A DNA stretch of 64,000 nt from an uncultured Alphaproteobacteria bacterium (GTDB lineage: Bacteria; Pseudomonadota; Alphaproteobacteria; RF32; CAG-239), in assembly GCA_944391505.1 (NCBI GenBank), contig CALXTV010000001.1, positions 34,651 to 98,650 on the forward strand, written 5' to 3'. The notes beneath the pieces are model-generated. The model was not told the DNA's origin. It ran no database searches and was given only the letters and a program-made list of their open reading frames with translations. The translations under genes and the position numbers were made by a program. Below are positions 4,458 through 45,760 of this stretch, piece by piece. Each line of letters opens with the position of its first letter. Position 1 is the first letter of the stretch.

Positions 4458-5816
4458 ATGGAACTTTTCGGCGCATTAAAAAAACTTTTTCAAAATTCCG
4501 GCGGCCGTTCTGCCGAAACAACCGGAACCGTTCCGGCCGCCATGCCGCGTTTCAAAATAAAAGTCATCGAATTCAGCGACAACGTCGAAGGCAGCAGTGG
4601 CGAAATAATTGCCCGGCAGCTGTCGGCCAGAGAAGGTATCGAAGTCGGCTATTTTGATGAACCATTTAACAAAAGCTTCCTTAATCTGGAAAGCCGGACA
4701 CTGTTCGACCTCATTGACAAAGGACAAGCCATTTTAGATAAGACCGGAGCCGACGTTTTGCTCTGGGGCTGTCGGGAAGGCAACCGCATCCGCCTTAACT
4801 TTCAGGTTCCCAGTCAGTACGAAGACGAAGAACTGACCTTTGTCTCTCTGATGGACAGCCTGTATATTCCGGCCAGACCGGAAAACGAAATTTACCCGGA
4901 GGCCGTTATCAGCCTCATCTACGGAGGGTTGCTCAGCGCTGTAAAGACTTCCGGCGCACAGGCAAAGATTTACAAGCGCTACCTGTTGAAAAAAATCATC
5001 GACCGATTGTCAAAAGACAATTCTGCCAAAACGCTTTCCATAGAATATATGCCTTATATCATGAATTTTTTGGGCATTATTTACTTCAGTTACGCCTTTG
5101 ACAAATCCGACGGACATGATTTCAAAATTGTCAAAGGCCTTTTTGATACAGCGGTCAAGCATCAGGATTTGATAACCTCGCCAATTCATCTGGGCTGCAT
5201 TTATAACCACCTCGGACAGCTTTATGATTGCGCCACACGCTATATGGAAAAAAATCCTGCCTCATATTTCAAAGGAGCCATTGAATATTATCGGCTGGCA
5301 CAAAAATACCTCGGCAAATACACCTACCCCTACGATTACGGCTATATTTCCTATAAGTTGTCCAAACTGTTCTTCAATTACTGGCGCCAAAAAGAAGATC
5401 TTCAGGCGCTTCGCGATGCCGTTTTTCAGCTTCGCGAAGCCGAAAAAATTTATACTTACGCTTTATTTCCGGAATTTTGGGCAGAGATTCAGGGACAACT
5501 CGGCTACCTTTTGTCGCTGCTTGGCTCGTTTACCAAAAGCGAAGACATTTCGGAACTGGCGATTACCAGCTATAAAAACCGCCAAAAAGTCATTACCGAG
5601 CGGCGCGACCCGCTGCTCTGGGCCGAATGTTCGGAAAACATCGGCAACATCTATTACCGCATTGGCAAAAACAAAGAGGATCGTGCAGCTTTGGAAGAAG
5701 CGCTTGAATATTTCCACGACGCCCTGTATATTTTCGAAAACGCCCAGCTTCCCGAACAAACAAAAAAACTTACGGCCGACATCGCCCGCACCAACCAAAG
5801 CATAAATCTGCTCTGA
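4458..5816 (+). CDS. TPR-like helical repeat protein
   Basis: C-terminal helical repeats (WAEIQGQLGYLL, WAECSENIGNIYY, ALEYFHDAL). Confidence 0.6.
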   Translation: MELFGALKKLFQNSGGRSAETTGTVPAAMPRFKIKVIEFSDNVEGSSGEIIARQLSAREGIEVGYFDEPFNKSFLNLESRTLFDLIDKGQAILDKTGADVLLWGCREGNRIRLNFQVPSQYEDEELTFVSLMDSLYIPARPENEIYPEAVISLIYGGLLSAVKTSGAQAKIYKRYLLKKIIDRLSKDNSAKTLSIEYMPYIMNFLGIIYFSYAFDKSDGHDFKIVKGLFDTAVKHQDLITSPIHLGCIYNHLGQLYDCATRYMEKNPASYFKGAIEYYRLAQKYLGKYTYPYDYGYISYKLSKLFFNYWRQKEDLQALRDAVFQLREAEKIYTYALFPEFWAEIQGQLGYLLSLLGSFTKSEDISELAITSYKNRQKVITERRDPLLWAECSENIGNIYYRIGKNKEDRAALEEALEYFHDALYIFENAQLPEQTKKLTADIARTNQSINLL

Positions 5817-5821
5817 GCACC

Positions 5822-6274
5822 TTATACCTTCCCTTTCGGCGAGGCCTCGTCCAATATAATTTTTTCACCATAAATTTCAATTTTATGCCCCTGCATTTTA
5901 TAACCGTACGCCGCCGCAATTTTTTCCAGCACAACATCTAGTTCATCTGCCGAAAACTCCGTAATTGCGCCGCTCCGAACGTCTATTATGTGGTGGTGAT
6001 GATGTTCCGTCTCCGAAACTCTTTCATAAGTCGCCTCCATATTCGGAAATTCGTGTTTTTCAATCAGTCCGAGCGCGCAAAGCAAATTCAGTGTACGATA
6101 TACTGTTGCCAACCCCAGAGTTCTGTCCTTTTTTCTGGCTCTGCTCAATATTTCGTCCACCGTCAAATGTCCCCGGGCTTTTTCCAATACCGAAAACAAT
6201 GCCAAACGCGAGGACGTCAGGCTGATTCCCCTTTCCCGAAATGTTTTTTCAAAAGCCGACATAAATTTATCCAT
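5822..6274 (-). CDS. fur: Fur-family transcriptional regulator (start 6274 or 6262)
   Basis: LTSSRLALF, HLTVDEI, LGLATVYRTLNLL and HHHHII motifs. Confidence 0.85.
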   Translation of the reverse strand: MDKFMSAFEKTFRERGISLTSSRLALFSVLEKARGHLTVDEILSRARKKDRTLGLATVYRTLNLLCALGLIEKHEFPNMEATYERVSETEHHHHHIIDVRSGAITEFSADELDVVLEKIAAAYGYKMQGHKIEIYGEKIILDEASPKGKV

Positions 6275-6282
6275 AAAAAAGA

Positions 6283-6311
6283 TTGACACAATGCAAAGAA
6301 AATTTTATAAA
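6283..6311 (+). promoter_or_regulatory. Sigma70-type promoter divergent from fur
   Basis: TTGACA (6283-6288), 17 bp, TATAAA (6306-6311). Confidence 0.7.
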
Positions 6312-6312
6312 T

Positions 6313-6349
6313 TTATTTATTGAGAAAGATTATCATTCTCAATAAATAA
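6313..6349. promoter_or_regulatory. Fur box within a 14-bp-arm palindrome
   Basis: Reverse complement of 6322-6340 is GAGAATGATAATCTTTCTC, 16/19 to the consensus GATAATGATAATCATTATC; arms TTATTTATTGAGAA / TTCTCAATAAATAA. Confidence 0.75.
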
Positions 6350-6426
6350 GTCAACACAAAAATTAAACATCAAATATAACTCCTGAAACGACAATACGGA
6401 ACCGGCAACATCGGTTCCGTATTTTT
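6318..6426 (+). ncRNA. Putative Fur-regulated small RNA (RyhB/PrrF-like functional analogue)
   Basis: Promoter and Fur box followed about 100 nt later by an intrinsic terminator, no sense ORF; contains anti-SD seed ATATAACTCCTGAAA (6374-6388). Confidence 0.5.
6393..6426 (+). terminator. Intrinsic terminator
   Basis: AATACGGAACCG-gcaacat-CGGTTCCGTATT followed by TTT. Confidence 0.7.
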
Positions 6427-6509
6427 CATCATACCTAAAACTTCTTGCTCATATCGCCAAACAAAGGTATCATCTTTTTGTTTAATATCGTCTCGCAGGA
6501 GAGTATAAA

Positions 6510-6854
6510 ATGCAGCATTGCATAGAACCCAACATCAAAATCGAAGACACCGGTTTTGGCTATACCATGTCCATCATCGGTGGCAAATATAAAATGATAA
6601 TTCTCTATTGGCTGGGCGAGTTCGGGGTCCTGCGACACAATGCGCTGTATCGGCTGATTGGCAAAATTTCTTTCAAAATGCTGAGTTCTACCTTAAAAGA
6701 ACTTGAAGCGGACGGTCTGATTCTCCGCAAAGTATACCCGCAAATGCCGCCCAAAGTCGAATACAGCCTGTCTGCCAAAGGAAAATCTCTGATACCGATG
6801 CTGTTCGAACTTTGTGATTGGGGAGACCAAAACCGTCCGAAAATTAAATCATAG
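6510..6854 (+). CDS. HxlR-family winged-helix regulator
   Basis: IIGGKYKMIILYWL...LSSTLKELEADGLILRKVYPQMPPKVEYSLS. Confidence 0.9.
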   Translation: MQHCIEPNIKIEDTGFGYTMSIIGGKYKMIILYWLGEFGVLRHNALYRLIGKISFKMLSSTLKELEADGLILRKVYPQMPPKVEYSLSAKGKSLIPMLFELCDWGDQNRPKIKS

Positions 6855-7403
6855 GGAAGCTCCTAAATCTTTTGCCTCAGACAAAGCCTTATGACCTTTA
6901 ATATCACCAATTTTAAACACGCCGCCGGCAATAACGCATCCGAGATTATCCCACCCCATTTGCGCAAGCAACGCATTAAAATAATCTTTAACCGGTTTTG
7001 CATTATCCAGCGTATCACCTTCGGCCGCCATTAACAAAAGACACCCTTTCTTCGGATTTTCATAATTTTCATTACATTCGGCGACGGCAAATAAACGGTC
7101 AAAGGCACATTTCAGTTGGCCTGAAATACTCCAATAATACATCGGCGAAGCCAAGACCAAAATATCGGCCGCAGCATATTCCGGATAAATTTTCTGCATA
7201 TCGTCTTTCTGCACACACGGACTGCTTTTGTCTTTACCGCCGCCAAAGCAACCCAAACAGCCATGAATATTCATTTTTTGCAAATCAAAACATTTTACTT
7301 CATGTCCCTTGCTTTGAGCTCCTTCCGTAAAGGCTTCAATTAAAGCCTTGGTATTGCCGTTTTGCCGCGGACTTCCGTTCAAAATCACGATTTTTTTAGT
7401 CAT
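6849..7403 (-). CDS. Flavodoxin-family / NADPH-dependent FMN reductase (iron-sulfur flavoprotein-like)
   Basis: LNGSPRQNGNT, CxGCxxC...C (CLGCFGG...CVQKDDM), ASPMYYWSISGQLK; start MTKK at 7403. Confidence 0.85.
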   Translation of the reverse strand: MTKKIVILNGSPRQNGNTKALIEAFTEGAQSKGHEVKCFDLQKMNIHGCLGCFGGGKDKSSPCVQKDDMQKIYPEYAAADILVLASPMYYWSISGQLKCAFDRLFAVAECNENYENPKKGCLLLMAAEGDTLDNAKPVKDYFNALLAQMGWDNLGCVIAGGVFKIGDIKGHKALSEAKDLGASL

Positions 7404-23589: not shown

Positions 23590-23910
23590 TTATTTCAAAA
23601 CTTCAATAAATTTGGATAAGGTATGAATTTGTTCATCCGAAAGGTGCCTAATATTTGCAATCAACAAGGACTCTTCAGCTGCACGTTTGGGGCTAATGTT
23701 GTCATCAACATTATCATCTAAAATCATGCTTAATCGGCAATTAAGAGCTTTTGTTATATCGACCAAGGTCTCAAAATGTGGATAATTGACACCTCTTTCT
23801 ATGTTTGATATAGCCTCAACAGAAACATCACATCGCTCAGCTAAAACTTCTTGTGTCATTTTAGCCGCTTGTCTAATAGCCTTAATTCTTAACCCGATCT
23901 TTTTCTTCAT
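23590..23910 (-). CDS. XRE/Cro-C1 HTH regulator
   Basis: IGLRIKAIRQAAKMTQEVLAERCDVSVEAISNIERG. Confidence 0.9.
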   Translation of the reverse strand: MKKKIGLRIKAIRQAAKMTQEVLAERCDVSVEAISNIERGVNYPHFETLVDITKALNCRLSMILDDNVDDNISPKRAAEESLLIANIRHLSDEQIHTLSKFIEVLK

Positions 23911-45346: not shown

Positions 45347-45520
45347 TATTTTTCTCCCGAACAATATTTTTTCTGATTTAACCAATATATGGGAAGCAGA
45401 GCACCGTTTCGCAAGTTTGCCGGCGCAAAAAAATCCCCCTGCCGACTTTTTTACTTGCATTTCGGGATAAAATTGCTAAATTGAAGCCGATGTTTACAAT
45501 TAATTTTTAGGAGTTATATC

Positions 45521-45760
45521 ATGGTTTCTGTTGTTAGTGACGCTTGCGTCAAATGCAAATCCTGCGTAGACGTTTGCCCGGTAGACGCTTTCCATGAAGG
45601 CGAAACCCAGCTGGTTATTGATCCCGATACCTGCATCAGCTGCGGCGTGTGCATTTCCGAATGCCCGCAGGAAGCAATCGCTCCCGATGACGAAGCCGAC
45701 GAAAAATGGGTTAAATTCAACGCCGAAAACGCCGCCAACTGGCCGAACGCTAACGAATAA
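45521..45760 (+). CDS. fdxA: Dicluster (7Fe/8Fe) ferredoxin
   Basis: [12 protein letters not shown] and [12 protein letters not shown]. Confidence 0.88.

Follow-up and report, generated by a model that had tools for sequence, protein, structure and literature searches.

Probable remnant of a nicotianamine-synthase-like gene beside fur in an uncultured gut alphaproteobacterium: a putative Fur-controlled promoter and a ferredoxin match that is most likely incidental

Results

A short predicted transcription unit divergent from fur

The window, a stretch of 64,000 nt analysed here as a whole, belongs to the genome of an uncultured gut alphaproteobacterium (G000), available as a 1.74-Mb assembly in 36 contigs. 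It carries a fur-family gene on the minus strand and, divergent from it, a short stretch on the plus strand (6283-6426) that opens with a near-consensus promoter and closes with an intrinsic terminator (Table 1). Beyond this terminator, the plus-strand gene of an HxlR/RrpA-like regulator (6510-6854) and the minus-strand gene of a NADPH-dependent FMN reductase/flavodoxin-like protein (6849-7403) are convergent and overlap by 6 nt.

Table 1. Features of the fur-divergent unit and of its proposed target, in window coordinates
Feature	Position	Strand	Remarks
fur-family regulator gene	5822-6262	-	146 aa; PF01475 at 3.6e-31
-35 element TTGACA	6283-6288	+	17-nt spacer before the -10; read from the sequence
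-10 element TATAAA	6306-6311	+	near-consensus promoter with TTGACA
P_NAS, predicted promoter of the lost nicotianamine-synthase-like gene	6283-6311	+	predicted start ~6318-6320
Predicted Fur operator	6313-6349		common to two divergent promoters; palindrome with 14-bp arms, 6313-6326 / 6336-6349
19-mer Fur box GAGAAAGATTATCATTCTC	6322-6340		inside the palindrome; 16/19 vs Fur consensus
Predicted promoter of fur: TTGACT (6354-6349), 16 nt, TAATCT (6332-6327)	6327-6354	-	-10 inside the Fur box
Putative deletion junction acaaaaattaa, 11 nt (junction string of the scar: AAGTCAACACAAAAATTAAACATCAAATATAAC)	6356-6366	+	relatives have a 5′UTR and a 262-266-codon synthase gene here
28-nt block	6364-6391	+	3′UTR of the G002 synthase gene, identical; contains the seed; predicted unpaired
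Proposed seed ATATAACTCCTGAAA	6374-6388	+	within the 28-nt block
Intrinsic terminator, probably formerly of the synthase gene	6396-6426	+	hairpin 6396-6420, then A + T5
Shine-Dalgarno region and start codon of the 2x[4Fe-4S] ferredoxin gene, proposed target	45505-45527	+	79 aa, FdxA-like; CDS 45521-45760

A sequence-only reading of this stretch had described it as a candidate iron-sparing small RNA gene repressed by Fur, and the physical features on which it relied hold up. Reading the sequence confirmed the coordinates of the TTGACA-17-TATAAA promoter, and the Fur box placed over the predicted start (+4 to +22 relative to it), the stretch without a sense ORF, the intrinsic terminator after it and the divergence from fur were all found as described. 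Neither the promoter nor the terminator was listed by a consensus scanner; the promoter escaped it because the scanner demands a T at the last position of the -10 element.

The predicted RNA, from a start at ~6319 to the terminator hairpin, would be ~105 nt long. Folding of a 110-nt RNA gave -27 kcal/mol (z = -6.4) and a layout in which a 40-nt AU-rich linker stays open between a 5′ hairpin and the terminator, whose GC-rich stem has 9 bp (longer in the fold) under a 7-nt loop. From its sequence, the unit could plausibly produce a short Fur-repressed transcript with an exposed anti-Shine-Dalgarno (anti-SD) segment. The Rfam search that had been proposed was run with Rfam 15, at E-values up to 10 on positions 5800-6900 and at the gathering threshold on the whole window, and returned no matching family but only chance miRNA-type matches on the palindrome; the sequence, unrecognised by the first reading, was unrecognised there too.

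Matches to the Fur consensus as good as 16/19 occur at only three sites of the 1.74-Mb genome. A genome scan with the local 19-mer detected no second copy with fewer than three mismatches and no wider Fur regulon, the sole copy with three mismatches being AT-rich intergenic DNA near cas9. FeoB was also sought by motif in the genome, as it would point to an iron regulon, and only Der/EngA matched. The arms of the palindrome (window 6312-6350, compared with L002 1515-1550) measure 14 bp in G000 vs ~7-8 bp in two relatives presented below, G002 and G012, the left arm being altered in G000 so as to mirror the right one; template switching and chance in AT-rich DNA were considered as origins of this change.

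The unit aligns with the two ends of a synthase gene

Comparison with relatives gave a different picture of the origin of this unit. The closest of the two main comparators, Candidatus Scatocola faecigallinarum (G002), is a congener and sister species, while G012 belongs to another genus. In G002, the same TTGACA-17-TATAAA promoter and Fur box precede a 60-nt leader, after which comes a gene encoding a 266-aa protein of the nicotianamine synthase (NAS) family (PF03059). The arrangement of fur, Fur box and synthase is the same in G012, with a TTGACA-17-TATACC promoter, and the synthase-like gene of these relatives (262-266 aa) is divergent from fur. At its far end in G002, the string TAA-acatcaaatataactcctgaaacga-hairpin with its T-run constitutes the 3′ end, 3′UTR and terminator of the synthase gene.

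Alignment of the two species resolved the G000 unit into the promoter piece of G002 joined to its 3′UTR piece, with blastn identities of 75% over fur and the promoter and of 88% over the 3′UTR. The TAA at 6364-6366 aligns with the stop codon of the synthase. Since only 11 nt separate the operator region from the 3′UTR and this TAA falls on the stop codon, the unit appears to be what deletion of the body of a gene left behind, its head and its tail. By origin, the stretch 6283-6426 is very probably a deletion scar. The proposal that it represents an "independently evolved analogue" of RyhB or PrrF does not survive this comparison, as the unit corresponds to the head and 3′ tail of a deleted nicotianamine-synthase-like gene.

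Synteny with G002 ends exactly at the terminator, at position 6426. The terminator copy of G002 retains its stem via a paired T:A insertion. In a G002-type human gut contig (L078), the terminator loop is inverted, ggttgcgc for gcgcaacc, on an unchanged stem, and other G002-type strains show G-U or single changes in the stem.

Three further genomes of the family carry the synthase; in one of them (G224) a similar, near-perfect Fur box lies in front of it, and in G025 the gene and that of an M20 peptidase are transcribed divergently, fur not lying between them. In sum, fur, box and NAS occur together in two genera (G002 and G012), two more have NAS together with either a Fur box or an M20 gene, and the empty form occurs in one species, a distribution that points to the intact arrangement as the older of the two.

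A second difference was found on the other side of fur. The gene order of relatives is fur-M20-GNAT-glyoxalase-TPR, reduced in G000 to fur-TPR, so that ~2.2 kb (M20, GNAT and glyoxalase) are missing 3′ of fur. In G002-type relatives the fur stop codon overlaps the start codon of the M20 peptidase gene (ATGA), M20 being translationally coupled to fur (L002 2000-2020 / L144). The deletion downstream of fur accounts for the new C-terminus of the G000 Fur protein, ~10 residues with the private tail ILDEASPKGKV. After this loss, a short palindrome, cgaggcctcg, is found between the convergent fur and TPR genes (window 5817-5860).

No stand-alone homolog of the unit was found: an exact 19-mer scan of metagenomes returned NAS-linked copies only, and a scan across the family, covering 282 genomes, gave exact matches in G000 and G002 alone. 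The stand-alone form was found in this species only, the other carrier, G002, having it as the 3′UTR of a protein-coding gene. A looser family scan, with an 18-mer and two mismatches, was set aside, its matches being mostly chance or ribosome-binding sites (RBSs) and the one in G005 lying in coding sequence.

The same junction is present across strains

The source genome is a 36-contig assembly of an uncultured organism, which makes it conceivable that the arrangement arose as an artefact when this one metagenome-assembled genome was put together. An identical Fur protein is encoded by 16 contigs; the 10 that were examined had been assembled independently, from several samples and at least two projects, and every one shows the order HxlR, scar, fur, TPR. 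They fall into two haplotypes 0.45% apart, between which the sole difference within 6283-6426 is A5 vs A6 in the junction run. This recurrence of the junction refutes an artefact, whose probability we regard as negligible, and the scar is the normal state of this species. Given the low diversity of the strains, the lack of other changes in the unit is uninformative on selection.

fur and its operator

The Fur protein of the window lacks CxxC pairs and has an HHHHH motif. Its best NCBIfam matches are Fur equivalogs, every one below the cut-off. Orthologs share 74% identity with it in G002 and 65% in G012, and fur is absent in 5 of the 7 species of the genus. The genome has one other Fur-family gene, which is PerR-like and adjoins rubrerythrin, leaving the fur of the window as the only Fur-type regulator. 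That second locus lies outside the window (G000:C6:69235-71484) and consists of the PerR-like gene, then rubrerythrin, with a divergent flavodiiron-type gene, an oxidative-stress set typical of anaerobes.

The predicted promoter of fur has its -10 element inside the Fur box, a layout that implies autoregulation. The same layout of promoter and box recurs in G002, G012 and L063, with an identical 19-mer upstream of the fur ortholog; the box is thus kept in four genomes. As L063, a metagenome-assembled genome, has no divergent gene at this place, autoregulation of fur suffices to retain the operator. Just 21 nt separate the fur start codon from the -35 element of the leftover promoter, which lies upstream of it in the fur leader. 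Accelerated decay of fur was not seen, with 11 unique changes in G000 vs 8 in G002 relative to the outgroup G012, a result compatible both with recent structural-gene loss and with Fur still being in use.

Pairing with the ferredoxin start region

The claimed complementarity between the seed and the start of a ferredoxin gene of the window proved exact: 6374-6388 pairs with 45505-45519 over 15 contiguous positions (14 Watson-Crick, 1 G-U), and the claimed extension of the pairing across the AUG is possible through a 1x4 loop. To place this match among others, the start regions of the 1618 genes called in the genome were ranked by the stacking energy of their best contiguous helix with the open linker. 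A plain duplexfold ranking was dropped, as it strings distant helices together across long loops, and was replaced by this contiguous-helix stacking. The ferredoxin ranked 1st of 1618 (15 bp, -21.9 kcal/mol), and the 2nd was a gene for a thioredoxin-like 2Fe-2S ferredoxin (13 bp), the first gene of an Fe-S-rich hydrogenase-like operon. In this operon, which lies outside the window (G000:C23:17500-23800), the gene for the thioredoxin-like 2Fe-2S protein (start at 23726) is accompanied by genes for proteins of 639 aa (ferredoxin-type N-terminus) and 313 aa, for another small 2Fe-2S protein and for an Fe-S protein of 483 aa. Judged by N-terminal motifs, the operon is similar to sensory/regulatory [FeFe]-hydrogenase clusters, its first gene being the one checked against Pfam.

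The weight of this ranking varied with the control applied. The best helix was reached by 3.6% of dinucleotide shuffles of the linker and the second-best by 0.4%; the ferredoxin pairing is only weakly above chance. With ACTCCTG held fixed and its flanks shuffled, the proportions rose to 22% for the best helix and 10% for the second-best; the complementarity to the ferredoxin does not exceed what chance yields for an anti-SD core between AU-rich flanks. Real start regions in reverse complement were rejected as a control because their GC content is far above that of the linker. When the accessibility of both target and small RNA was included, restricted to the linker, the ferredoxin came 5th of 1618 and the 2Fe-2S gene 125th, the other top candidates being hydrolases, PBP1A, ribosomal protein S10 and FlgE. 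Beyond the two ferredoxin-type genes, no other iron gene appeared near the top of the rankings of the 1618 start regions. The modelled enrichment of Fe-S targets is suggestive, though it varies with the ranking method.

In seven genomes of another genus (g7), an unrelated gene has TTTTCAGGAGTTATATTATG, the complement of the seed, as its RBS, which indicates that the seed mirrors a strong RBS of a kind generic in this family. A small g7 gene (L129, L131, L132) encodes a protein with a conserved N-terminal domain, MANNYNENAIREAAYYIWQNxGCPSG..., and a long Ser/Lys-rich tail; between this gene and the ferredoxin gene of G000 the RBS hardly differs.

The 28-nt block that contains the seed is unchanged between G000 and G002, although their Fur proteins are only 74% identical. 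Both target sites are also retained in G002, with 14 bp for the fdx site and 12 bp for the 2Fe-2S gene. None of the five congeners lacking the element has the 2Fe-2S pairing site, while the fdx core, AGGAGTTATA, occurs in 6 of the 7 genomes of the genus, element present or not. As G000 and G002 are sister species, this co-occurrence of element and target sites counts as one event and not as repeated co-evolution. The two genomes frequently share intergenic runs of ~20 identical bases, and locus identities elsewhere range from 82 to 91%, which makes the 88% identity of the 3′UTR unexceptional.

Discussion

The reading that we favour, and to which we give a probability of roughly 0.6, is that of a deletion scar with a leftover Fur-controlled promoter, whose pairing with the ferredoxin gene is most likely incidental. 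The ancestor would have carried an accessory metal-chelator module in which the NAS gene and fur diverged from two promoters sharing one Fur operator, fur being followed by the M20 peptidase gene and more genes. Loss of the NAS coding sequence, almost exactly from the 5′UTR to the stop codon, would have fused the Fur-controlled NAS promoter to the NAS 3′UTR and terminator, and a second deletion would have taken the genes downstream of fur. The Fur box is presumably still used for the autoregulation of fur, which would keep the box and the overlapping promoter DNA intact, and the terminator may still shield the downstream HxlR gene. Whenever Fur releases the operator, the leftover promoter would probably yield a non-coding RNA of ~105 nt, and a short Fur-controlled RNA is likely still made in this way. 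That this RNA can pair with the start of the ferredoxin mRNA is most likely a coincidence, since an anti-SD core flanked by AU-rich sequence finds long matches among strong RBSs.

Two other readings of the same DNA attribute a function to it. The more substantial is a working Fur-repressed riboregulator: a seed from the NAS 3′UTR, now carried by a stand-alone small RNA of ~105 nt and probably acting with Hfq, would lower the translation of Fe-S ferredoxin genes by blocking the RBSs of fdx and of the 2Fe-2S/hydrogenase operon. In the sister species the seed, still part of the NAS 3′UTR, would already have this effect upon induction of the module. We consider this possible but rather unlikely. 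It draws on the fact that the top two contiguous helices among the 1618 start regions both belong to Fe-S ferredoxin genes, are matched by few dinucleotide shuffles (3.6% and 0.4%) and, for the ferredoxin, keep a 5th rank once accessibility is taken into account. Yet the pairing loses significance as soon as the anti-SD core is fixed (22% and 10%), the 2Fe-2S site is predicted to be buried (rank 125), and there is no iron-related enrichment past the two ferredoxin-type genes. Conservation is similarly two-sided: the seed is identical in G000 and G002, both of which have the target sites, and the 2Fe-2S site is missing from congeners without the element; however, the element exists in only two sister species, a single phylogenetic event, and its 3′UTR is no more similar than the rest of the genome. 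The shape of the RNA, an open seed between a 5′ hairpin and a U-tailed terminator, is that of a classic Hfq-type small RNA, and the genome contains hfq. The 10 contigs examined out of the 16 found, from both haplotypes, all have an intact promoter, operator, terminator and fur, and the persistence of fur, although the structural genes are gone and the local box has no close second copy, suggests that something may keep Fur and the transcript in use. Against this, the loss of both structural genes around fur looks like the decay of a module, and this Fur paralog, which may sense a metal other than iron, travels with a metallophore gene and is missing from 5 of the 7 congeners.

A second alternative concerns the minus strand. 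The sequence-only reading had itself named, as a competing explanation, that the AGGAG is only the RBS of a 17-codon minus-strand ORF (6317-6370). On this account a conserved AGGAG-N9-ATG would start a small gene or an upstream ORF of fur (MFNFCVDLFIENDNLSQ, 6370-6317), and the likeness to the ferredoxin gene would be that of one RBS to another. Shine-Dalgarno sequence, spacer and ATG all fall in the 28-nt block that G000 and G002 share without change, and a real gene of another genus is preceded by the same RBS-type string. The peptide, on the other hand, is not conserved, the G002 frame running ~51 codons antisense into the synthase gene with a different sequence, and in G000 the ORF overlaps the promoter and operator of fur; we judge it highly improbable. 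Returning to the earlier proposal of a Fur-repressed small RNA with an Fe-S target, the Fur-box promoter, the non-coding stretch and the terminator stand, whereas the independent origin does not. With no conservation as an RNA gene outside this species and weak statistics once the core is controlled for, the locus is reported here as a gene-loss remnant, with a nascent small RNA as the minority reading. In that minority reading, which is doubtful, a small RNA would be caught at its birth: upon precise deletion of the coding sequence, the 3′UTR seed of a Fur-controlled metallophore gene would have become a stand-alone, Fur-repressed anti-SD RNA with an iron-sparing effect through silencing of the 2x[4Fe-4S] ferredoxin and the 2Fe-2S/hydrogenase operon.

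Known iron-sparing RNAs offer points of comparison. RyhB in E. coli, PrrF1/2 in Pseudomonas and NrrF in Neisseria are Fur-repressed, Hfq-dependent iron-sparing small RNAs. Like them, the unit has a predicted Fur box over a sigma-70-type promoter, ~100 nt of non-coding sequence, a Rho-independent terminator, a putatively exposed stretch that could pair near the start of an Fe-S mRNA, and hfq in its genome; unlike them, it matches no Rfam sequence or structure, is not conserved as a gene and derives from the ends of a protein-coding gene. FsrA of Bacillus subtilis is a Fur-repressed small RNA that pairs with the Shine-Dalgarno regions of Fe-S enzyme mRNAs. The same holds for IsrR of Staphylococcus aureus (PMC9410917). 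The proposed C/U-rich anti-SD segment would resemble these two in masking the RBSs of Fe-S genes under Fur derepression. IsrR and FsrA, however, show genus-wide conservation, several C-rich motifs and validated targets, whereas the unit has one CUCCU core and two sister species.

The 3′UTR-derived small RNAs CpxQ, SdhX, DapZ and FarS share their layout with the G002 locus, where seed and terminator form the 3′UTR of an mRNA under the same regulator; they differ from G000, in which the coding sequence is wholly gone. The seed is conserved in G002 and predicted to be open there. Reading of the G002 3′ end found no processing site or internal promoter that could release it. The sole promoter-like site there, TTGAAA-16-TATAAC, starts downstream of the seed and therefore cannot supply a seed-bearing small RNA.

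Among Alphaproteobacteria, RusT of Caulobacter crescentus is an iron-responsive, Hfq-bound small RNA of ~118 nt that is induced on iron limitation and acts at mRNA 5′ regions; it is controlled by NtrYX, has TonB-dependent receptor mRNAs as its main targets and shows conservation within Caulobacteraceae (PMC11005374). The unit comes from the same class of bacteria but differs from RusT by its Fur-box promoter and has no sequence relation to it. An analogue of RyhB in a gut alphaproteobacterium without a cultured relative would be notable, because RusT, the one iron-responsive small RNA of the class found in our literature search, is not controlled by Fur. To our knowledge, no Fur-repressed RyhB-type regulator was known earlier in Alphaproteobacteria; a working regulator at this locus, if real, would be the first, and would explain the retention of the orphaned fur.

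What the evidence describes is a more ordinary process, in which an accessory metallophore gene was probably lost and its control signals left behind. The resulting fusion of promoter, operator, 3′UTR and terminator would nonetheless be a ready-made source of a regulated short transcript with an exposed anti-SD segment, thought to be raw material for trans-acting small RNAs, and the sister species G002 provides the "before" state for a direct comparison. The locus also calls for caution in small RNA prediction: even where no small RNA has evolved, a 15-bp match to an Fe-S gene can turn up together with a Fur box and an orphan terminator.

The staphylopine operon cnt of S. aureus and the pseudopaline operon cntOLMI of P. 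aeruginosa encode nicotianamine-like metallophore systems under Zur/Fur control. The presumed ancestral module resembles them in having a PF03059 gene behind a Fur-family operator and adjoining the regulator. It differs in that no opine dehydrogenase or dedicated importer was seen adjoining it, its partner being an M20 peptidase, and in that the synthase appears to have been deleted in G000. Since the synthase gene of G025 is divergent from M20 without fur, the synthase-peptidase pair may be the functional core of the module. In genus g20 (L126 / L127; G025, G222), the synthase-like gene adjoins a gene for an Fe/Mn superoxide dismutase.
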